Shown piece by piece: positions 749-42,507 of a stretch of DNA of 44,263 bases. The stretch lies in NCBI GenBank assembly GCA_029038705.1, contig GCA_029038705.1_4346.1; one strand, 5' to 3'. The stretch's first letter is position 1. The number at the start of each line of letters is the position of its first letter. The position numbers and the translations under genes are program-made. Origin of the DNA: a phage. A model generated the notes under the pieces. That model saw nothing but the letters and a program-made list of their open reading frames with translations, ran no database searches and had not been told where the DNA came from.

Positions 749-998
749 GCTTATGTCCTCCGTATGACAGCCACGCCTGACGAATCTGGCGCAGCGCAAC
801 TAATGTGATTAATGTCCCAGGCAGCGTTGGCGACATGCTGCCCTGTAACAGGTGGATGCATCCGGCAGCGCAAACGATAGCGGTCAGGATGTAGAGCACC
901 CGACCAAATAACCCATCGTCAACACTGGGGTGGTATACATTAAACAGCGATGTGCCACCGATTGCCAGCATACCGCCGAACCAGAATAACTCATTCAT
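726..998 (-). CDS. Small membrane protein, holin or antiholin-like
   Basis: 90 aa with two or three hydrophobic helices (FWFGGMLAIGGTSLF, VLYILTAIVCAAGCIHLL); sits between the holin-like ORF and the endolysin. Confidence 0.5.
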   Translation of the reverse strand: MNELFWFGGMLAIGGTSLFNVYHPSVDDGLFGRVLYILTAIVCAAGCIHLLQGSMSPTLPGTLITLVALRQIRQAWLSYGGHKRVSKHFR

Positions 999-1299
999 CC
1001 GGGTCTCCTCGACGTGCGATGTATTCTCCGGCGACGATACCGGAGAGGCGGGAATAGATAGGCACCCAGAGAATAGCGATAATGAAGCCCAGGCCAGCTA
1101 TCTCGCGTTCGCCGGTAATACCAAACCATTGGGCCGCGAGAGGCGCACCAAATACGGCGCAGGTGAAGCCGGTAGCGATAAAGCAGAAGCCATCAATAGG
1201 GCCAGAAATAACGGACTTATGTTGCCGTAGGCCGATTACCCCTCCGGCTAGTGCGGCAGCGAGAAGCCACCCCGTCACTGTTTCAGTAAATTTATCCAA
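991..1299 (-). CDS. Holin-like membrane protein (TTG start)
   Basis: 102 aa with three predicted TM segments; first gene of the lysis cassette. TTG start with GGAGGA 6 nt upstream, embedded in a hairpin. Confidence 0.55.
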   Translation of the reverse strand: MDKFTETVTGWLLAAALAGGVIGLRQHKSVISGPIDGFCFIATGFTCAVFGAPLAAQWFGITGEREIAGLGFIIAILWVPIYSRLSGIVAGEYIARRGDPDE

Positions 1300-2398: not shown

Positions 2399-2430
2399 TT
2401 CGTTTTCCTCTGTCTCGTCTGTGTAAATGA

Positions 2431-2459
2431 ATAGTAGCCTATTCTATCTTAGTGTGCAA
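2431..2459 (-). promoter_or_regulatory. Sigma70-like promoter (TTGCAC-N17-TACTAT) carrying the AATAG-N4-CTATT element
   Basis: On the minus strand: TTGCAC, 17 nt, TACTAT. Plus strand carries GAATAGTAGCCTATTC. Confidence 0.55.
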
Positions 2460-3786: not shown

Positions 3787-4005
3787 TTATTTAAAGTAGA
3801 TAGCAAATTTCTTGTAACCCGCTGGCTCGTTACGAAGTCCTTTACCGTTAGCGAAACGTTGTACGTTAACAAAATCATTTTCATCCATTCCGTCGGTGTC
3901 GAACGTAAAGAAGTTGCGCTTGTTCCCGATAATTACGCGCTCTGAGATATCGATGCCGTAAACTTCTTTGATTGCGGAAACTACGCTTGCGGTCGCTTTG
4001 TTCAT
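3787..4005 (-). CDS. Hypothetical protein (first gene of the leftward early operon)
   Basis: 72 aa ORF immediately downstream of promoter 4040-4068. Confidence 0.5.
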   Translation of the reverse strand: MNKATASVVSAIKEVYGIDISERVIIGNKRNFFTFDTDGMDENDFVNVQRFANGKGLRNEPAGYKKFAIYFK

Positions 4006-4039
4006 TTCTAAATTCCTTATGTCTCGTTTCGATAAGTGA

Positions 4040-4068
4040 ATAGTAACCTATTATGTTGGGGTGTGCAA
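4040..4068 (-). promoter_or_regulatory. Sigma70-like promoter (TTGCAC-N17-TACTAT) carrying the AATAG-N4-CTATT element
   Basis: Minus strand: TTGCAC, 17 nt, TACTAT. Plus strand reads GTGAATAGTAACCTATTATG. Confidence 0.55.
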
Positions 4069-4426
4069 GAGAATAGTTACGTTGCCGTTGTGATTCTTCG
4101 GGGAGGGTTGTGCCTTTATTCTTATTACTTGGTAACTAAAGGGCAGGCTTAAGCCTGCCCAATAATCGTTACATTTTTACGGTTGCGAATCTACGGCACA
4201 TTAAGAAACAGTATATATTTCAGCGGGTTACTTCTTTAAATGAGATTTAGATACACTTATCCTTAAACCCCAAGGCAAGCATCTCAGCTGTCTGGGAGGG
4301 GTTGACGAATCCCTCGGGGAGGGTTCGTCAACTCCGTAATATATACAAGTCCCAAAACCATTATACAAACATGTGTCAAGAACTTTCAATAACATTTTTG
4401 TAAAGATTAAATATTACAGAGATTGG

Positions 4427-4455
4427 TTGCTTTTACATTCCCGCTATCCTATACT
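4427..4455 (+). promoter_or_regulatory. Sigma70-like promoter for the rightward operon
   Basis: TTGCTT, 17 nt, TATACT, about 30 nt upstream of the ATG at 4487. Confidence 0.45.
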
Positions 4456-4486
4456 CAGTTTCACCAAACAAACAGGAGATATAAAA

Positions 4487-4669
4487 ATGTCGCATTATAT
4501 GACGCAGAATGAAGTAGCTGAACGTATCGGGGTGACACGTCAGACAATTAATAACTGGTTGCGCAGCGGCAAATTCCCTGACTGCTGTATTAAGGTTATG
4601 GGCCGCCGTTTACCGGGAACATTTGACCGTAATAAAGTCGAAGCATGGATTAAGGAGAACGTGAAATGA
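4487..4669 (+). CDS. Small HTH DNA-binding protein (AlpA/MerR-excisionase-like fold)
   Basis: MSHYMTQNEVAERIGVTRQTINNWLRSGKFP is a helix-turn-helix signature. AGGAGA sits 7 nt upstream; the track's longer ORF from 4373 has no RBS. Confidence 0.6.
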   Translation: MSHYMTQNEVAERIGVTRQTINNWLRSGKFPDCCIKVMGRRLPGTFDRNKVEAWIKENVK

Positions 4670-5025: not shown

Positions 5026-5154
5026 ATGACGAAGTTAATAGTTCCACAGCTGCGCCGACAGAAACACGGCGCCGATTTCTTCGCGCCGGTAAAGATGAAC
5101 CGCGCAATGCGCCGTATGCAGGAAGCCTTAGAACGTGCGGAGAAAAAGAAATGA
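5026..5154 (+). CDS. Hypothetical small basic protein
   Basis: 42 aa ORF (MTKLIVPQLRRQKHG...), AAGGA upstream; ATGA overlap with the next gene. Confidence 0.35.
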   Translation: MTKLIVPQLRRQKHGADFFAPVKMNRAMRRMQEALERAEKKK

Positions 5155-7373
5155 ATATTGTTTTTGCAACGCTGCGTAACACATTCGATAAAAACCCTGT
5201 AGCGCGTGAAATGCCGCTGGAGCAGTTTGTCGAGTATGTCTGCGATACATCGAAGCGTTTATCCGTGGACCCGTCATGGACTAAGGAAGAGTACGACGCT
5301 GCCAAGATTAAACAGAAAGCTATTGCGCCTGTTGGTGGTCGCCGTAAAAACGCTATCCTGGAAGACAGTGTGGTTAAGTTCGATTTCGACCATCTCAACC
5401 GTACTCAGTACCGCGACCTGACACGCAAATTCAAGAACGCGCCGTTCTTCAATATTCTGCACACAACGGCATCGCATCAGCACGCATGTAAAAACGGAGA
5501 TTACGCTTTCCGCGTTCTGGTTCCAGCTCGCACGCCGTTTAACTCTAACGACGCGTGGATGGTGCAACGTGCTATTTGTGCAGAGTTAGAAATAGACGAA
5601 GCGTTGCGCGACCACTGCACAGAAGACGGCAACCGCCTTATCTACCTGCCGCATAAAGAGTCGAAGATAACGGTTACAGAAGGGCGTGTTATCCGTGCTG
5701 AGCGGTACATCAAGAAAGCCGAAGAGATGGGGTTGCGTAAGCGTGAGGCTAAAACACTTGCCGCTGATGAGCATGGGCTTAACGCGGATATAGCACACTT
5801 CTGCGAAGCCGAGCTTGGCCTTGACGCTTTATCTTCCGGGCGCGGGTACGAAGTGCCATGCCCTAACGAACATCTGCATACAGGCAAGGGCTCCACCAGC
5901 ATAATGCTCGACGGTAAAGAAGTGCGCTTTGTCTGCCAGCATACAAACAACGGCGCTTGCACCGAGCTTAACCGTAGGCAGCATTTGGCCCTGCGTATGT
6001 GTGGCCTACCCGACGAGCTTAACATAGATAAGCAACCTATCAGCATTAACAGCATTCGTGCGGCTCTGCCTGATTTACCGGAAGAAGAGATTGAAGAACT
6101 ACACCGCACAGAGAACGAGGACCCAGTAACTTGCAGCCTCGACGACCTGGAAGACGACGAGGACTCAGAGGAGGACGAGTTACCGGAGCCGGTAAAGGCT
6201 GATTTCGTCGTTGAGGGGTACATGCCGTCGGATTGTATCTGGGATATCGTCGGGGAATCTGGCACGTACAAATCGTTCTATACGCTGGGGATGATGTACC
6301 TCAGCGCCGCCGGGTACAGGTTTGCGGGGGCGGATACCCAGCGTTGCCACCATTTCTATATTGATGGTGAGGGTGGCGCAGCTACACGCACCCGTATTGA
6401 TGCACTAGCGGCTAAATATGGCGGGGAAGGTAAAGATTATGTACACGTCATCGATATGGGCGAAGTCGGCAAACTTAAAAGCCTGATTAAGTTAATGCGC
6501 GAAACTGCTGGCGACGAGCCAATTGGCATGGTTGCGTTCGACACCCTTAACCAGACCCTGGCACTGACGATTGATAAGTTCGACGAGAACAGTTCATCAA
6601 CAGCAATCGGCATGGGTAAAGTTATCGCCATTCTGAAAGAAGTACGCGATGCAACTAAAGCCGCAGTAGGCGTTGTCCACCATACGCCGAAGGGTGGAAA
6701 GAAAGCACGCGGCAGTGGGGCGCTGTATGCGGGTGTTGACGTGGAACTGACAATCGAACGTGCAACCGACCGTCAGATAAACGTATATCACTCGAAATTC
6801 AAGCACGGGCCTCAGCAGAAGACGGTTGGCATGGTGCTGGAGTCGGTACAGTTCCGTGAAGCGCCGCCGCCTAAAGAATACCGAGCGGTTGAGTTCCTGG
6901 GTAGCACAGAGGAATACGGCACAATCGTAAACCTGGACCTGCCTGAACCACACAAGGCGCTTGTGTTGATGCCGTGGGGTTTCGAGCCGTTCAAAACTGA
7001 CGAGGAGAAAGAGCGGGAAGAAGGGTTGACGAAAGAAGGTAAGCAAAAAGTAAAGGAAGAAGTTAAACGCGGCAGGGATGAAGTAAGGAAGGAGTCAATA
7101 CTTTCGGCACTGGAAGACCTGCAACAGTCAGATGACACAGGTCGCGGTTTTACTCAGCAGCAGATAGTGGCTCGTTCCGGTGACTTCTCTGTGACTAACA
7201 CCCATCTTGATAAAATGTTGAAAGATGGAGAACTAATGCTTGGTTGCGATGCTAACGGCGAAGTAGTACCGAGAACATATCGTATACCCGAAAGAATAGG
7301 TGATAGATTAAGGCCGAAGACACTATACGAACCAAATGAGATGCTGGTGGTGACAGAGGAGGATTTGGAATAG
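5151..7373 (+). CDS. Replicative primase-helicase-like protein (N-terminal primase-like region, Cys/His cluster, C-terminal RecA/DnaB-type P-loop ATPase)
   Basis: 740 aa. Walker A-like GESGTYKS, Walker B-like VAFDTL, Cys/His cluster CPNEHLHTG...CQHTNNGAC, and a C-terminal acidic/basic tail. Domain assignment is by eye. Confidence 0.65.
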   Translation: MNIVFATLRNTFDKNPVAREMPLEQFVEYVCDTSKRLSVDPSWTKEEYDAAKIKQKAIAPVGGRRKNAILEDSVVKFDFDHLNRTQYRDLTRKFKNAPFFNILHTTASHQHACKNGDYAFRVLVPARTPFNSNDAWMVQRAICAELEIDEALRDHCTEDGNRLIYLPHKESKITVTEGRVIRAERYIKKAEEMGLRKREAKTLAADEHGLNADIAHFCEAELGLDALSSGRGYEVPCPNEHLHTGKGSTSIMLDGKEVRFVCQHTNNGACTELNRRQHLALRMCGLPDELNIDKQPISINSIRAALPDLPEEEIEELHRTENEDPVTCSLDDLEDDEDSEEDELPEPVKADFVVEGYMPSDCIWDIVGESGTYKSFYTLGMMYLSAAGYRFAGADTQRCHHFYIDGEGGAATRTRIDALAAKYGGEGKDYVHVIDMGEVGKLKSLIKLMRETAGDEPIGMVAFDTLNQTLALTIDKFDENSSSTAIGMGKVIAILKEVRDATKAAVGVVHHTPKGGKKARGSGALYAGVDVELTIERATDRQINVYHSKFKHGPQQKTVGMVLESVQFREAPPPKEYRAVEFLGSTEEYGTIVNLDLPEPHKALVLMPWGFEPFKTDEEKEREEGLTKEGKQKVKEEVKRGRDEVRKESILSALEDLQQSDDTGRGFTQQQIVARSGDFSVTNTHLDKMLKDGELMLGCDANGEVVPRTYRIPERIGDRLRPKTLYEPNEMLVVTEEDLE

Positions 7374-7400
7374 GTAAAAAGAAAGGGGCGTTACGCCCCT
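7373..7400 (-). terminator. Terminator between the converging primase-helicase and XRE genes
   Basis: Hairpin AGGGGCG-TTAC-GCCCCT; minus strand is followed by UUCUUUUUACC. Overlaps the XRE stop codon. Confidence 0.5.
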
Positions 7401-7606
7401 TCACCTAGCGCCAGCCACTTGGCGTCTACTTCCAGCACTTCCGCCAGTTTAAACAGCGTTGCCGGGCGTACGTCCTGAGTTACCCCGAGTGCAAGCTGGT
7501 TAATCGCGCCCTGGGAAACGCCGGCCAGAACAGCCAGACGGCGCTGGGAGATACCGAGTTCTTTACGGCGTTGCTCTACACGGATGCCTAGTTCAGATGG
7601 TTGCAT
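7391..7606 (-). CDS. XRE-family (Cro/CI-type) HTH transcriptional regulator
   Basis: 71 aa; ELGISQRRLAVLAGVSQGAINQLALG is the XRE helix-turn-helix pattern. Divergent from the flanking plus-strand genes. Confidence 0.8.
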   Translation of the reverse strand: MQPSELGIRVEQRRKELGISQRRLAVLAGVSQGAINQLALGVTQDVRPATLFKLAEVLEVDAKWLALGEGA

Positions 7607-7626: not shown

Positions 7627-7655
7627 TTGATATGTGAATAGTACCATATTAATTA
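7627..7655. promoter_or_regulatory. Operator-like copy 1 (GTGAATAGTACCATATTAAT), probably overlapping the leftward promoter of the XRE gene
   Basis: Degenerate copy of the AATAG-N4-CTATT element (second half ATATT), immediately upstream of the XRE gene start. Confidence 0.45.
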
Positions 7656-7670: not shown

Positions 7671-7699
7671 TTGACATGTGAATAGTTCGCTATTATAGT
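7671..7699 (+). promoter_or_regulatory. Sigma70-like promoter (TTGACA-N17-TATAGT) with embedded AATAG-N4-CTATT palindrome
   Basis: TTGACATGTGAATAGTTCGCTATTATAGT; drives the gene at 7728. Confidence 0.6.
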
Positions 7700-10766: not shown

Positions 10767-10795
10767 TTGACACCTGAATAGTTAGCTATTATAGT
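10767..10795 (+). promoter_or_regulatory. Sigma70-like promoter (TTGACA-N17-TATAGT) with AATAG-N4-CTATT palindrome
   Basis: TTGACACCTGAATAGTTAGCTATTATAGT; upstream of the SSB-like gene. Confidence 0.6.
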
Positions 10796-14409: not shown

Positions 14410-14686
14410 AGAGGGCCGCGTACAGAAATACGCAAAAGAGCAATTCGAGGCCATTGGCGGCCTCGTTCGTAAACTTTCGTACGAGGGGCGCTCCGGCGCC
14501 CCTGACCTGCTGGTAATTCTCCCCGGCGGCATCGTCTGGTTCGTCGAGGTGAAGAAAGACGAAAGCACGAAGCCTGACCCACACCAGTTACGAGAGCATG
14601 AGCGGATGCGTAAACGTGGTGCGAATGTTTTTGTCGTCGGGTCGTTCAAACAGGTTGACGACCTAATAGCGAACTATTATAGTTAG
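14399..14686 (+). CDS. VRR-NUC domain nuclease (PD-(D/E)XK)
   Basis: 95 aa; GAPDLLVILPGGIVWFVEVKKD matches the D-x(n)-E-x-K core. Confidence 0.7.
   Translation: MATKEGRVQKYAKEQFEAIGGLVRKLSYEGRSGAPDLLVILPGGIVWFVEVKKDESTKPDPHQLREHERMRKRGANVFVVGSFKQVDDLIANYYS
14655..14683 (+). promoter_or_regulatory. Sigma70-like promoter (TTGACG-N17-TATAGT) with AATAG-N4-CTATT palindrome, inside the 3' end of the VRR-NUC gene
   Basis: TTGACGACCTAATAGCGAACTATTATAGT. Confidence 0.55.
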
Positions 14687-17008: not shown

Positions 17009-18957
17009 AGTATGCGTATTTCCCCGCCGTGTATGGCGACAGGAGTAGCCAAATAAGGACTTTTTACCACAACGAAGCCATTTTCGTTGCTCACCACCGG
17101 CGGCTTCGATACATCGGATGTAGAAAGCGCCACCGCGGTCCTACCGGCTACATGCCCGAGCCAAAACCATGTCCCCAAGTTATGGTCTATTTTAAGGGCG
17201 AGGAACAGTAATTGGGTATCTGAGTATTGAATCTGTGTTGTCCATTTTGCTCGGGTGTCTGAGCCAGAAATCTCTGTAGAGACGCTCGCGCCAACTGTGT
17301 ACCCTGCGGAGCTACCATTGCTCATCTTCCCGTTAACAAGCTGCGGGTGGTATTTACTGGTCTGCTTGGCTTTCCCTACAACTGAACTAAGTCCTAAATC
17401 CGGGTGGTAGAAGACTATAGTCTGGTCTACTGTGCTGGCCTCTTTAGCGGATGCAGCGGGTAGTGTTGTACCGCCGGGTTTTATATCTGTTTGCCAGTGA
17501 ATGTCAGAAAGGTTGTACGGCGACCCTTCGTTAAGGTTCCACCAAACGGCCCCTCCCCCAATACGGTTATTAGGAAGAATACGCACGTTAGTATTATCGT
17601 CAAATGCGCCAAACATTTTCATACTACTGCCGTAAATCCAACAGTTATCCATAGTGATATTATTGGCGCTCGTTGCTATGACGCCATATACACCACTTTC
17701 GTCTGACTCTATGTAGCATGAATCAAACTTGATGTTATATGCTCCTGCAATCCAAACGCCATGGGTACGAAAACTTTCAATGCCGCAGTTGAACAGCGTA
17801 AGAGCTTCAACAGCCCCTTCGAACTTAATGCCGACATCACACTTGCCTGTATGAACTGATACTAATGGCTGAATGTTACATTCATCGGTAAAGTGGTAAC
17901 GGTGCAAGCCGTTAGTGTATGTACCGTTACACTGTAGGTTCCTGAACATGGAGTAAAAACAGCGCTGAGTGTAAATCAACTGCTGGACGTTTACACCAAC
18001 AATATCTGTAACTTCGCAGCCAAATACATGGTCCCGCAGACGAAAGCCTTGATAGAAATTAATCAGTGTAGCATTGCGAATTGTTGTCCCTATAGTTAGA
18101 TACTCTTCACCAGATTTTCCAAAAACCGAAGAGATAGTGCCAGTAGAAGTTATATAGCCAGTCTCAATGAACACGTTAGTTGTGTCAGAAGTGTCGTCAC
18201 GCCCTACGATACGAGCGCCCTGAAAATCGATCACTTGCATCCTACGCTTAGGGAAATTAGTTGCTTCAATGCCAGATGGAGATTCTGAAGCCAACACATA
18301 AACTTTACCGGCGATGTAGTAGCTTTTCCACGGAGTAGCAACAACTTTAACACCACCCGCGCGCCACGCGGCGACTATAGCCGCCTGAAACGCCGATGTG
18401 TCGTCATGGCGACTAGGGTTTGGGCTTCCGTTTACCAGGTAGGCGTCACCGTATGCGCCAAAATCATCAACGTTAATCTCCTGTTTGAGTTTATCCATTA
18501 CGGTGAGTGAAACCGAATCGGAATACCCAGAATTGAATCCCACCAAAGATGCGCCGGATAGATCTGCTAGCTCATTGCGCAAATCCGGGTCAGTCTGCGG
18601 CTTCCAGTTAGCGTTACCAACCGGGTTAAACGATGCGGGGACAACAACCGGCAGAGTCCCGGTATACGAGTACCACGTCTTGCTTACAGGGGCATACACC
18701 ACTTTGTCTCGGTCATTAACTGTTAATGTCCCGCCTGTAGAAAAGTCCCACGACACGGGAGAAAATCCCGCGCCACGCAACACGGCGGGTAACGTCTTCT
18801 GTGTCTGTCCGGTAACCTGATTTGTTGCATAATCAATATCAGCACCAGTAGCAACACCGCCGGATTTGCCGGTGATAACCTCGGCTTCAAAAATTTGGTG
18901 TTTCTTGGCGGTCTGTAAATCCACCAGGCTTAAAACGTCACCGCATCCGCTTGACAT
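17005..18957 (-). CDS. Tailspike / tail fibre with right-handed beta-helix (pectate-lyase-like) domain; candidate depolymerase
   Basis: 650 aa, last gene of the tail operon; DDTSAFQAAIVAAW resembles the pectate-lyase-family motif; repetitive Gly/Asn/Thr-rich beta-strand segments. Confidence 0.7.
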   Translation of the reverse strand: MSSGCGDVLSLVDLQTAKKHQIFEAEVITGKSGGVATGADIDYATNQVTGQTQKTLPAVLRGAGFSPVSWDFSTGGTLTVNDRDKVVYAPVSKTWYSYTGTLPVVVPASFNPVGNANWKPQTDPDLRNELADLSGASLVGFNSGYSDSVSLTVMDKLKQEINVDDFGAYGDAYLVNGSPNPSRHDDTSAFQAAIVAAWRAGGVKVVATPWKSYYIAGKVYVLASESPSGIEATNFPKRRMQVIDFQGARIVGRDDTSDTTNVFIETGYITSTGTISSVFGKSGEEYLTIGTTIRNATLINFYQGFRLRDHVFGCEVTDIVGVNVQQLIYTQRCFYSMFRNLQCNGTYTNGLHRYHFTDECNIQPLVSVHTGKCDVGIKFEGAVEALTLFNCGIESFRTHGVWIAGAYNIKFDSCYIESDESGVYGVIATSANNITMDNCWIYGSSMKMFGAFDDNTNVRILPNNRIGGGAVWWNLNEGSPYNLSDIHWQTDIKPGGTTLPAASAKEASTVDQTIVFYHPDLGLSSVVGKAKQTSKYHPQLVNGKMSNGSSAGYTVGASVSTEISGSDTRAKWTTQIQYSDTQLLFLALKIDHNLGTWFWLGHVAGRTAVALSTSDVSKPPVVSNENGFVVVKSPYLATPVAIHGGEIRIL

Positions 18958-26677: not shown

Positions 26678-26706
26678 TGCACACCCCAATATAATAGGGT
26701 ACTATT
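26678..26706 (+). promoter_or_regulatory. Sigma70-like promoter (TTGCAC-N17-TACTAT) with AATAG-N4-CTATT element, driving the plus-strand cassette
   Basis: TTGCACACCCCAATATAATAGGGTACTAT; same architecture as the minus-strand early promoters at 2431 and 4040. Confidence 0.55.
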
Positions 26707-26745
26707 CACTTACACCAACGTTATTAACTTAAATAAGGAATTAAA

Positions 26746-35664: not shown

Positions 35665-35915
35665 GTTTCTCCTTTCTCGATAAGTAAAGCCCCGCTTTAA
35701 GGCGGGGCGCTAGTCCTTATCATTTAAACATAGAAACGGCGTAATCTCAGTAAACCCGTTACTTTTTACACGAGCAATAGAGTATGGCCCTTCCGAACGC
35801 GTCAGCGTAACTACACTCATGACTTACGTCCCGCTCCGTTACCTGCCCGCGCCGCGGTCGCTTGTTCATACTTCACAAGCTCAGGTGGAGCTTAGCACAT
35901 TTTTAGTGAAAAGTC

Positions 35916-35931
35916 AACTATTCGAATAGTT
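35916..35931. repeat. Perfect 16 bp palindrome AACTATTCGAATAGTT
   Basis: Read directly. Shares the GAATAGTT half-site with the promoter element; GGAATAA is repeated twice just downstream (about 35954-35969). Confidence 0.6.
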
Positions 35932-35978
35932 TATTCCTACATTTACAATTTGGTGGAATAACTGGAATAATCACAGGC

Positions 35979-36003
35979 ATTAAAAAGCCCCTTTCGGGGC
36001 CTA
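35979..36003 (-). terminator. Rho-independent terminator
   Basis: Hairpin GCCCC-TTTC-GGGGC; minus strand is followed by UUUUUAA. Confidence 0.5.
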
Positions 36004-36006
36004 AGT

Positions 36007-40514: not shown

Positions 40515-41786
40515 TTAAAGTGCGAAAGTCACCGGGACGTTAATAACTGGTTTGCGAATCGGCATTTCATACGCGATAGGGTATGTGGTTCCATCATTCT
40601 GGTGGTCCACACCACCTGATTTATCCGGTTCGCCGTTCTTGTCGTAGGCTTGCTGCTCCAGGCATCGAGCAGTAACCGGGCAAGCCTGTTCGTTAATCAT
40701 GACCATACCAGATTCAAGCGCCTTATTCATCGCAGATACGCGGTCTTTAACCGGTGGGTTTGTCGATTTAGCGCGTACTTCGAAACCGGCCTGCTGTAGC
40801 TGGACGATGTCGGAGGTGCTGGCGTTGTTGCTTTTACGGTTCTTGCCGCTGGCGTCCGGGTACATAACGATATAATGGCCCTTACTTTTCCAGCGCTCCG
40901 TTATGGCTCGCACTACATCCGGCGTATCGAACATATCAACCAACTCGGCGACAGCGTGCCACACCTTTCCGCGTTGCACGTAGACTGTGCTCGCCATATG
41001 GCCTACGTTAAAATCCTGCCCAATATACAGAGTCTCACCAGGCTTGATTGTTTCGCGACTGCTGTTTTTCCTGCGGTCGTAAGCGTAGTAGACCGTCCCA
41101 GCCGTGAGGTTTACGAACTCGCCGTTGATGTAGGCATCAATCAACTGCCCGGGGTAGGTATCTCGTAAGGACTGCACATAATCTTCTGGCAGGAACGGGT
41201 TAGACAGGGTGGACGCCTGAATCATCTCGTAACCAGGATTCTTTTTAACAACCCAGCGGTCATGCACGAAACGGAATCCTTCCGGCGTAGTGAACACGGA
41301 AACGGTATTAGCAGGTTTTGGCGTAATAGGTTTATACGTCCTCGGCAACTGACGGTTACGGGCGATGACTTTGTTCCATGCGTGCTCCGCGTGTTCCATG
41401 TTCAGGGTATCCAACTCGTCGATTTTTGCACGAAATGACTCGTAACCAACGATTCGTGCTGGATTATCTAATGTACGCAGGACAAAATCCCCAAATTGAC
41501 CGGATGACGTATAGATTATGTTGTCGGACTTATTGTATTTGTACCGGATACCCCAGTCCGTCAGCTTCTCTTCCATACGGGGCGCAAGGATAAGGCGTAC
41601 CAGGTCATAAGTAGGCTCATACATGGCGATGATAGAATCGCTGCCACCCTCCATGCTGTCCAGTAGCGCGGAGTTACACATAACCTCTGATTTCCCGGTG
41701 CCGAAGCCAGCCACGAACGCAGGGAACTTGCAATGCATCCCAAGAAATGCGCCTTGAGGTTCCGTTGCCGTGATATTAACGTTCAC
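40515..41786 (-). CDS. terL: Terminase large subunit
   Basis: 423 aa; Walker A-like FVAGFGTGKS near the N-terminus; C-terminal nuclease-type region; upstream of portal. Confidence 0.85.
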   Translation of the reverse strand: MNVNITATEPQGAFLGMHCKFPAFVAGFGTGKSEVMCNSALLDSMEGGSDSIIAMYEPTYDLVRLILAPRMEEKLTDWGIRYKYNKSDNIIYTSSGQFGDFVLRTLDNPARIVGYESFRAKIDELDTLNMEHAEHAWNKVIARNRQLPRTYKPITPKPANTVSVFTTPEGFRFVHDRWVVKKNPGYEMIQASTLSNPFLPEDYVQSLRDTYPGQLIDAYINGEFVNLTAGTVYYAYDRRKNSSRETIKPGETLYIGQDFNVGHMASTVYVQRGKVWHAVAELVDMFDTPDVVRAITERWKSKGHYIVMYPDASGKNRKSNNASTSDIVQLQQAGFEVRAKSTNPPVKDRVSAMNKALESGMVMINEQACPVTARCLEQQAYDKNGEPDKSGGVDHQNDGTTYPIAYEMPIRKPVINVPVTFAL

Positions 41787-42288
41787 CGGACACCACCTTA
41801 ATTGTTACTTCACTGATTGGCTCGTCGCGTACTTCTTCGGCGACAACTGTTTTATTCAGCCCCAGCTTAGCGGCGGCGAACGTAGCAGAGATACCGGCGG
41901 CCCCATTCTCAGTGAAATACGCCTCTTCCAGCGCCTGTGCCGTTTCATAGGCTTCTGCAAATGAGGGAATCTCGCGCAGCCACAGCTTAATAATCGGGAT
42001 AGTGACACCGATGTGTAAGGCGAAGCGAGCCAGTGATGGCGGTTTATCCGCAATGACTGCTTTGTAGTCTCCGTGCGCACCGGTCGGCATAGCCTCCCAC
42101 GACGTGCGGTCGAAGAAACGAATCAATTCGTCACAATAGTCCGGGTCCCACAACGCGGCGGAATTACGGGATGATTGATAAAGGCTCTGTTTACCGCGCG
42201 GTCGTTTACGGCGACGGTTTGCGCTAACAGCTTCTTCATGTGCAGCTTGCACCACCTCTGGTGATGGCTGCTTGAGTTTCAGCTTCAT
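41776..42288 (-). CDS. Terminase small subunit (probable)
   Basis: Position upstream of and overlapping TerL. Start is probably the ATG at 42288 (AAGGGGA RBS) rather than the track's 42327. Confidence 0.5.
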   Translation of the reverse strand: MKLKLKQPSPEVVQAAHEEAVSANRRRKRPRGKQSLYQSSRNSAALWDPDYCDELIRFFDRTSWEAMPTGAHGDYKAVIADKPPSLARFALHIGVTIPIIKLWLREIPSFAEAYETAQALEEAYFTENGAAGISATFAAAKLGLNKTVVAEEVRDEPISEVTIKVVSGER

Positions 42289-42380
42289 AGAATCCCCTTG
42301 CATATGCGTCTGACCATCAGAGCGCACCAGACGCGCCCTACGCGTCTAAATGGATTATATAAGGGGATTGGGCGGGATGT

Positions 42381-42406
42381 ACAGAAAAGCCCTCGGTAGA
42401 GGGCTT
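42381..42406 (-). terminator. Rho-independent terminator upstream of the packaging genes
   Basis: AGCCCTC-GGTAG-GAGGGCT; minus strand is followed by UUUUCUGU. Confidence 0.5.
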
Positions 42407-42507
42407 GTATCAGTTGTATAGGCCGTGGCGTGGTGCTCTTTTACCGTCGCCGCCGTAATGGTCGTTAGCTACGGGAATGGCCCGGGCGTTAGGGATGATT
42501 AGTAGTC

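Follow-up and report, generated by a model that had tools for sequence, protein, structure and literature searches.

A third promoter and a conserved, hairpin-rich non-coding cassette in the early control region of a Kagunavirus

In the genome of an Escherichia coli phage, two divergent early operons are separated by 481 bp that carry no recognisable gene, which poses the question what this interval does. The stretch analysed here (the window; 44,263 nucleotides, contig GCA_029038705.1_4346.1 of NCBI GenBank assembly GCA_029038705.1) is a complete Kagunavirus genome (Guernseyvirinae) and matches Escherichia phage JSSK01, in the opposite orientation, with 99.7% identity over the 1.1 kb tested. 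A first-pass annotation had described the interval as a non-coding control region with two promoters, a GC-rich hairpin and repeats, and had suggested that it could hold a replication origin, a packaging site or an attenuator-type element. All the features that it listed are present where it had placed them. As judged from its sequence, the gap is a phage early control region, ordinary in kind. It also holds a third promoter and a conserved, hairpin-rich cassette, and a control region with these two elements is previously undescribed in this phage group. Among the functions that the cassette may have, we rank a transcription-activated replication origin first, by analogy and tentatively, at clearly less than an even chance.

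The gap (all features are collected in Table 1) is bordered by the start codons of a 72-aa minus-strand gene (ATG at 4005) and of a 60-aa HTH_17 gene (ATG at 4487). That it is the largest in the genome was borne out: in the JSSK01 record it is the longest annotated intergenic interval (481 bp versus 342 bp for the runner-up), and gene callers left the identical 481 bp empty in 10 further assemblies. The leftward operon consists of small genes, the first being the 72-aa open reading frame (ORF) at 4005..3787, and runs on around the circle into the lysis, terminase and structural genes. The rightward operon begins with the HTH_17 gene, continues with genes of 96 and 42 aa and leads to a 740-aa helicase-primase, which has an AAA_25/RepA-like domain. 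The gap is thus located directly upstream of, and divergent from, the replication operon. Its description as a non-coding control region between divergent early operons holds, given that it contains no conserved ORF and no Rfam or tRNA match and that both promoters proposed earlier are conserved.

Sigma70-type promoters were recognised by -35 and -10 hexamers 16-18 bp apart, the -10 having A as its second and T as its sixth base, and P_L1, P_R and P_L2 all have such hexamers and spacing. One of them, P_L2, had not been seen by the first-pass annotation. It is the region's best sigma70 match, with 11/12 consensus positions, and one of only three 11/12 sites in 20 kb. P_L2 stands back-to-back with P_R and is aimed into the gap, with a predicted start at ~4353. 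From its position and direction it follows that the tandem promoters P_L2 and P_L1 enclose a non-coding cassette of ~290 bp, into which P_L2 reads. Over the 49 sequences compared, the promoter hexamers and their spacing are conserved beside variable flanks, and a minus-strand equivalent of P_L2 (TTGACA/TTGACT/TTGAAA, 16-18 bp spacer, TAAGnT/TATAAT/TAAAAT) was present in all sequences examined, loci L026 and L029 included. P_R serves the HTH_17, 96-aa, 42-aa and helicase-primase genes; an element TTGCTT/TTGATT-17-TATACT stands at its position in nearly all of ~60 relatives (TATAGT in cassette type E, see below), which upholds the rightward promoter proposed earlier. The leftward promoter had been placed exactly. 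This P_L1, which drives the leftward early genes, has a predicted start at ~4033, followed by the ribosome-binding site AAGGAA and the ATG at 4005, and it is conserved among relatives; a simple promoter scan misses it because its -35 matches only 3/6. The 200 bp of lowest GC content in the genome (4328-4527) cover the area of P_L2 and P_R.

The cassette contains a conserved non-coding core that had escaped the first reading. Positions 4075-4204 are 93.8% identical to Jerseyvirus wksl3, while the alignable 61% of the genome averages 77% in the same whole-genome comparison, and no non-coding stretch other than the core is found among the ten best 130-bp windows. In blastn searches, part of the gap was found in 390 phage records, and all matches belong to the Guernseyvirinae. 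The most widely shared piece (4066/4075-4208) is 82-92% identical in Jerseyviruses and is never annotated. The core has no match in E. coli genomes, and the single "plasmid" match resembles a phage genome. Listed as an "E. coli plasmid" from human blood, this record (PLSDB CP088689.1, hit H91) has a 97% match to the anchor region. With 44,086 bp it is as large as a Kagunavirus genome, and it is probably a misfiled phage genome. Inside the core, the GC hairpin reported earlier proved real. Hairpin 1 has a perfect stem, in which 7 of the 8 pairs are GC, and a loop of 4 nt, and its chance in shuffles of its own segment is 0.0008 (0.08% of shuffles). In the core of types A and D, its stem and unpaired flanks are invariant and the loop occurs in 6 variants.

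To what extent is this arrangement shared? To the gap sequences of 51 loci, metagenome and genome scans added 13 and exact protein look-up another 10; the gap was typed over the interval that begins at the universal anchor AGTTACGTTGCCGTTGTG (4075-4092) and ends at the HTH start codon. The sequences fall into at least five groups whose middle parts have no detectable similarity, a modularity that the first-pass annotation had missed: type A (Jerseyvirus and K1ind-like, 23 sequences), type B (11 sequences), type C (Shashou-like, 7 sequences), type D (the type of the window, 4 sequences) and type E (K1G-like, 3 sequences). The distance from anchor to HTH start codon is 389-426 bp in 46 of the 48 unique sequences. 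Every type has a perfect GC hairpin 50-88 nt from the anchor, which reads GGGCAGGC/GCCTGCCC, GGGTGGGC/GCCCACCC or TGGTGCC/GGCACCA; the chance of finding the hairpin in these three unrelated cassettes is 0.0008, 0.004 and 0.006. Only three motifs are common to all types, namely the anchor, ACGGCA (missing from the C/E hybrids L102 and L149) and TATTGA, the -35 motif of P_L2. Scans of metagenomes and genomes with the 17-mer anchor gave mostly chance matches; the 13 true relatives among them held no new cassette family, only the C/E hybrid, and an IMG/VR scan with the hairpin returned 1 locus. Ten further type-D assemblies are nearly identical and therefore uninformative on variation within this type.

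In Jerseyviruses, the gene-free gap is longer (~0.9-1 kb) and consists of the same cassette plus ~550 bp (L013 612-1627 in Salmonella phage 5sent1; L062 8880-9735 in wksl3). In this additional DNA lie a second terminator on the minus strand (L013 857..836) and, on the same strand, a 41-aa ORF that is not annotated and is preceded by the ribosome-binding site AAGGAGG (L013 ~1011..886). A Jerseyvirus gap in a bacterial assembly (L204, Taishania pollutisoli CZZ-1 scaffold22, 18,987 bp) is 99% identical to an IMG/VR Jerseyvirus contig and is probably phage DNA or contamination.

Further from P_L1, the 9-bp inverted repeat of the first-pass annotation is confirmed as the centre of a larger, imperfect repeat with 15-nt arms. 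This hairpin 2 folds with -33 kcal/mol (z = -5.1) and is the positional counterpart of hypervariable hairpin cassettes in the other types. At this position at least five different sequences occur, all of which fold as hairpins; type A alone has five, between conserved flanks. Four plus-strand G-runs (GGGAGGGG ... GGGGAGGG) at 4294-4323, around hairpin 2, could form a competing G-quadruplex and are confined to the cassette type of the window. Both exact copies of the 12-nt direct repeat TCGGGGAGGGTT exist as reported, and the genome holds 3 matches with at most one mismatch where 0.12 are expected, but the repeat is not conserved. Copy 1 lies in a hypervariable segment of 0-17 nt between GCCGTTGT and GTTGTGCC; fBC-Eco01, a close relative, has TTTAGGGAAGGTT here, which makes the exact repeat lineage-specific. 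Since copy 1 also differs in most relatives and is deleted in L011, a role of the two copies as a functional pair is unlikely. At 4214, the junction of the conserved core and the type-D module, the window has a private substitution, T in place of the G that is found in all ten closest assemblies and in Bas70 (CAGTATAT versus CAGTAGAT).

Could the gap encode small proteins instead? Some records annotate coding sequences here, in Bas70 (38 and 33 aa), Kenya-K2 (51 aa) and Shashou (35 aa), and the window itself has a 55-aa minus-strand ORF (4395..4228). The latter begins upstream of the P_L2 -35, however, and gene callers placed no gene in the gap of the ten assemblies. A comparison of 10 representatives found no conserved ORF among those of 25 aa or more; these ORFs vary in strand, frame and extent even among close relatives and lack ribosome-binding sites. 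Rfam returned no match for the gap (best 16-17 bits against thresholds of 50-79) and nothing in six related loci, and no tRNA was found. Over ~60 related loci, no protein appears to be encoded between P_L2 and P_L1. We therefore regard the small coding sequences of some records as probable over-calls, and unannotated protein genes in the gap as very improbable.

If P_L2 is active, host RNA polymerase would read leftwards from ~4353 through hairpin 2 (4335..4298), an AT-rich spacer and the core with hairpin 1 (4160..4141), which is followed by UUUAGUU. The product would be a non-coding transcript of ~220 nt that ends or pauses at hairpin 1. By analogy, the transcribed cassette between P_L2 and P_L1 may be the phage replication origin: transcription by host RNA polymerase would open or prime the AT-rich, hairpin-containing region, and hairpin 1 would also limit read-through into P_L1. 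The model for this is the PE1-PE2 origin of the lactococcal phage c2 (Ceduovirus), a non-coding segment that separates divergent modules and has two tandem early promoters as its borders (PMC7150918). The c2 origin occurs in discrete types that are conserved within and unrelated between types; no ORF or ribosome-binding site follows the first promoter, whose non-coding RNA is reported to matter in length and structure, and the origin works without phage proteins (PMC7150918). The gap, too, is non-coding, lies between divergent modules, has two tandem minus-strand promoters (P_L2 and P_L1), no conserved ORF and, as in c2, neither ORF nor ribosome-binding site after the first promoter, and its discrete types, five or more, are conserved within and unrelated between types. 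As to phage replication proteins, the helicase-primase has two unrelated N-terminal classes, and each of the two main hairpin-1 cassettes is found with either class. The cassette type is thus unlinked to the helicase-primase class, which fits a host-driven origin. Besides matching the published c2 pattern, an origin of this kind would account for the arrangement of promoters and hairpins, the constraint within types, the similar lengths of the cassettes and their independence from phage replication proteins, and for this reason we place it first.

Other transcription-primed or transcription-activated origins are known from E. coli systems, among them the primary origin of T7, the R-loops at oriF/oriG of T4 and RNA II of ColE1. 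As in these, a promoter in the gap reads into an AT-rich, structured non-coding segment beside replication genes. Unlike them, the P_L2 RNA would be C-rich rather than G-rich across hairpin 2, with no obvious tract that favours an R-loop, and the gap has no homology to any of them. With the ssiA/ssiB sites of the IncQ (RSF1010) oriV, the gap shares short GC-rich hairpins beside AT-rich DNA, and the phage helicase is RepA-like; but the gap has no iterons, the cassette is unlinked to the presumed primase (N-terminal) class, and the N-terminal domain has no detectable similarity to RepB' or anything else. An IncQ-like recognition of ssi sites by a primase was rejected, as this domain has no Pfam or PDB match and the cassette type does not follow the N-terminal class. 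As a comparison of window 5151-6185 with L035 2559-3590 and L049 3114-4100 shows, the N-terminal ~300 aa of the helicase-primase exist in two unrelated classes (MNIVFATLRN.. and MSDVILSYSW..) on a conserved RepA-like C-terminal part. Neither class has a Pfam or PDB sequence match, and a homologue search with the N-terminal domain retrieved only 2 proteins.

Several observations weigh against an origin of this kind. The c2 precedent comes from a Gram-positive host and has no sequence similarity to the gap. This phage encodes its own helicase-primase, TOPRIM primase and polymerase, and with the first two, priming by RNA polymerase is not required. Chimeric c2 origins were reported to be non-functional (PMC7150918) and no mosaics were found for c2, yet mosaics between cassette sub-modules exist here, as recombinants of hairpin-1 cassette and right-hand module (A versus D; L038, B+A; L102 and L149, C+E). 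The -10 of P_L2 is weak (TAAGnT) in types A to C, and the U-tract after hairpin 1 is short, and poor in types B, C and E. The literature yielded no transcript or origin mapping for any Guernseyvirinae; for this phage, unlike for c2, the transcript and its origin activity are predictions. Of the signals by which the origin suggested earlier might be recognised, neither iterons nor GC skew lend support. By k-mer and motif counts, the gap has only two-copy short repeats and no iterons, and an AGWTACTWAG-like motif has 3-4 copies in type A but one in the window. No DnaA box with at most one mismatch was found in 7 type representatives. The cumulative GC skew does have its minimum at 3891, but this minimum, like the maximum at 17520, coincides with a coding-strand switch and is therefore not independent evidence. 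An origin of the iteron/DnaA type was rejected for lack of three or more direct repeats, of DnaA boxes and of co-variation with the helicase-primase type.

Nearly as likely as an origin, and compatible with it, is a purely transcriptional role as an attenuated leader or small RNA, which we consider possible but doubtful. P_L2 would then be a tandem upstream promoter of the left operon and hairpin 1 with UUUAGUU a leaky terminator; most P_L2 RNAs would stop as a ~220-nt non-coding RNA, which might act in trans, and the rest would pass P_L1 into the early genes and beyond. The attenuator-type element suggested at first becomes plausible because a third promoter, P_L2, lies upstream on the same strand, and it is plausible only by way of this promoter. 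Hairpin 1 has the GC-rich 5-12 bp stem and short loop of an intrinsic terminator and lies ~190 nt downstream of P_L2, on the same strand and in a gene-free gap. P_L2 and hairpin 1 are each among the top-ranked sites of their kind in 20 kb, hairpin 1 being second among terminator-like sites, and the predicted RNA folds well (z = -4.6). Hairpin 1 also resembles another terminator-like site of this genome, on the coding strand (35708..35689, GCCCCGC..GCGGGGC, TTTACTTATC); this minus-strand hairpin is located within the ORF-free interval 35701-36006 inside the structural gene cluster. In each of the three hairpin-1 cassette families, T is more frequent in the tail on the minus strand than in that on the plus strand, and the ~1-kb gap of Jerseyvirus 5sent1 has two terminator-like hairpins on the minus strand and none on the plus strand. 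Types A and D have the tail TTTAGTTA, in which 5 of 8 bases are T; the tails of types B and E (ACTGCGTT) and of type C (CGTTCGTT) are poor. Attenuation would also leave unexplained why stem and unpaired flanks are near-invariant across genera and why unrelated types are similar in length, and neither an antiterminator gene nor an Rfam family match was identified. The plus strand is favoured by two wobble pairs in the window's hairpin 2 and by one wobble each in L007 and L031, the minus strand by one wobble in L014; strand assignment by G.U wobbles was abandoned, the events being too few and conflicting. A known unit of this kind is the late leader of phage lambda, in which the strong promoter P_R' is followed within ~200 nt by the terminator hairpin t_R', with 6S RNA and no ORF between them, and from which the small RNA StxS is derived. 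The gap likewise has a promoter and then a hairpin within ~200 nt without an ORF between, and this unit precedes a long operon whose later part includes lysis, terminase and structural genes. This phage differs from lambda in being virulent, in its weak U-tract and in a second promoter (P_L1) just past the terminator; no Q-like antiterminator or qut site was identified in it.

What, then, controls P_L1? The 20-mer TGAATAGTAACCTATTATGT, a probable operator, overlaps its -10 and occurs in four copies in the window, where 0.01 is expected by chance. It contains the palindrome AATAG-N4-CTATT, which lies at 4039-4052 in P_L1. P_L1 is one of four window copies of CTTGCACAC..ATAATAGGnTACTATTCA. Three of the four read CTTGCACAC-N4-A-ATAATAGGnTACTATTCAyTTA in promoter orientation, with identical -35, 17-bp spacer and -10, and each of them precedes a gene start; at 7635, the -10 and the palindrome are retained and the -35 region differs. 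From the sequence we infer that the four units are a promoter-operator regulon under the XRE-family protein (7391-7606). In fBC-Eco01, PHIRE recovered the same consensus, which was labelled as a phage-RNA-polymerase promoter, with 7 of them (PMC9825357). No RNA polymerase gene is annotated in these phages, and the seven are in fact host-type promoters with an operator. A second, near-consensus promoter family on the plus strand (TTGAC[AG]-17-TATAGT at 7671-7699, 10767-10795 and 14655-14683) is spread along the replication operon.

These operators raise the prospect that the gap acts purely as duplex DNA. The core, the anchor/ACGGCA repeat and the hairpins would then be binding or bending sites for the XRE protein, the HTH_17 protein and host integration host factor (IHF), which set the activity and timing of P_L1 and P_R, with P_L2 weak or irrelevant and no role for an RNA or an origin. 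We consider this improbable, less so than the packaging site discussed below. A palindromic operator is common to four promoters, one of them that of the XRE gene itself, and the anchor begins with a second operator-like half site (GAATAGTTAC) 33 bp upstream of the first, found at this locus only. The first gene of the right operon encodes an excisionase/TorI-like DNA-binding protein, for which a TorI-like model has been given (PMC9409062). An IHF core consensus recurs, with offset and strand unchanged, in types A, C and E and in the C/E hybrid; its chance per sequence is 0.06. The motif, WATCARNNNNTTR, lies at +100 to +135 from the anchor (L006, L007, L012, L005 and L102). However, in the window's own type D this IHF-like site is disrupted (AAACAGTATATAT, ~4207-4219). 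The wksl3 core is still 92.6% identical despite deletion of the adjacent P_L1-like -35, and the P_L2 -35 is conserved in every type. Unrelated cassettes each keep a hairpin rather than a sequence, which points to a single-strand structure and not to duplex recognition. Lambdoid early regions (P_L/P_R or P_RM/P_R) offer a comparison, with divergent promoters and palindromic operators. Like them, the gap has back-to-back divergent sigma70 promoters and a palindromic operator that overlaps a -10; a small HTH regulator gene, here XRE, bears the same operator at its own promoter, and the region is modular, with unrelated "alleles" swapped between relatives. Unlike in lambdoid phages, there is no lysogeny module, the operator is dispersed over four distant promoters, and ~290 bp of structured non-coding DNA lie between the promoters. 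A packaging site (pac or cos), the remaining suggestion of the first-pass annotation, is not supported and in our view very unlikely, because relatives package by a headful mechanism with permuted ends and terS is 6 kb distant. A large non-coding region with inverted repeats would suit such a site, the GenBank records of blauehaus and sidste begin inside the core, and the JSSK01 paper groups TerL with 3'-cos HK97-type terminases, by phylogeny only (PMC11641727). Yet the ends of Jerseyvirus SeF1 are redundant, random and permuted (PMC9409062, Table 2), K47 packages by headful according to PhageTerm, restriction mapping and also electrophoresis on pulsed-field gels (PMC10783031), Shashou is predicted to do so (PMC6776780), and PhageTerm found no termini in Kagunavirus fBC-Eco01 (PMC9825357). 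Around the circle, the genes terS (41776..42327) and terL (40515..41786) are ~6 kb distant, and a 180-bp gap of their own lies upstream of them. The blauehaus record was cut within the gap so that the first left gene becomes gene 1; the starts of this record and of sidste were dismissed as physical ends and reflect arbitrary linearisation. The ORF-free 180 bp at 42328-42507, directly upstream of the minus-strand terS, would be a natural place for a pac site.

Table 1. Coordinates of the gap, its elements and associated features in the window.
Feature	Position	Strand	Description
Gene-free gap	4006..4486		481 bp; separates the leftward early operon from the rightward HTH/helicase-primase operon
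P_L1	4040..4068	-	Proximal leftward sigma70-type promoter; -35 TTGCAC (4068..4063), 17-bp spacer, -10 TACTAT (4045..4040)
P_L2	4360..4389	-	Distal leftward promoter; -35 TTGAAA (4389..4384), 18-bp spacer, -10 TATAAT (4365..4360)
P_R	4427..4455	+	Rightward promoter; TTGCTT (4427-4432), 17-bp spacer, TATACT (4450-4455)
Anchor	4071..4092		GAATAGTTAC (4071-4080), then GTTGCCGTTGTG; only long stretch common to all cassette types
Conserved non-coding core	4075..4208		
Hairpin 1	4141..4160	-	GGGCAGGC-TTAA-GCCTGCCC, then TTTAGTTACC on the minus strand; looks like a leaky intrinsic terminator
ACGGCA motif	4194..4199		Inverted repeat of the anchor's TGCCGT (4083-4088); the two bracket hairpin 1
12-nt repeat, copy 1	4098..4109	+	TCGGGGAGGGTT; in the hypervariable, deletable core segment
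12-nt repeat, copy 2	4314..4325		TCGGGGAGGGTT; within hairpin 2
Hairpin 2 (inverted repeat I1)	4298..4335		Imperfect 15-nt arms 4298-4312 / 4321-4335; encloses 12-nt repeat copy 2
20-mer, copy at P_L1	4037..4056		Promoter/operator motif; overlaps the P_L1 -10; probable operator
20-mer, second copy	2428..2447		Promoter on the minus strand
20-mer, copy before XRE gene	7635..7654		Precedes the XRE-family gene 7606..7391
20-mer, fourth copy	26689..26708		Promoter on the plus strand
XRE-family HTH_3 protein	7391..7606	-	71 aa; own promoter bears the 20-mer; candidate repressor of the four promoter-operator units
HTH_17/excisionase-like (phrog_66) DNA-binding protein	4487..4669	+	Opens the right operon; candidate gap regulator

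Taken together, promoters and hairpins provide the anatomy of the locus, and the functions that we assign beyond this anatomy are inferred. Kagunaviruses and Jerseyviruses are widely isolated, sequenced (~390 records with this element) and engineered as therapeutic or biocontrol phages, and the literature contains no mapped promoter, origin or non-coding RNA for them. For these phages, the analysis supplies the coordinates of three early promoters, of an operator regulon with four sites and of a non-coding cassette that is both conserved and modular. Returning to the replication origin as the reading we rank first, the c2 analogy suggests a broader, likewise tentative possibility, which we hold to be somewhat unlikely as it stands: across Kagunavirus and Jerseyvirus there may circulate five or more "origin alleles" that are non-homologous and interchangeable, are activated by host RNA polymerase and do not depend on the helicase-primase type. 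If true, this would be a c2-like origin system in virulent enterobacterial siphoviruses, possibly diversifying under co-infection competition or host defence pressure. Should the cassette be an attenuator or small RNA, it would offer a compact handle on early gene expression. Should it be an origin, it would mark 300 bp that engineers must leave intact, offer swappable modules and extend the c2-type, transcription-dependent origin to Gram-negative hosts.

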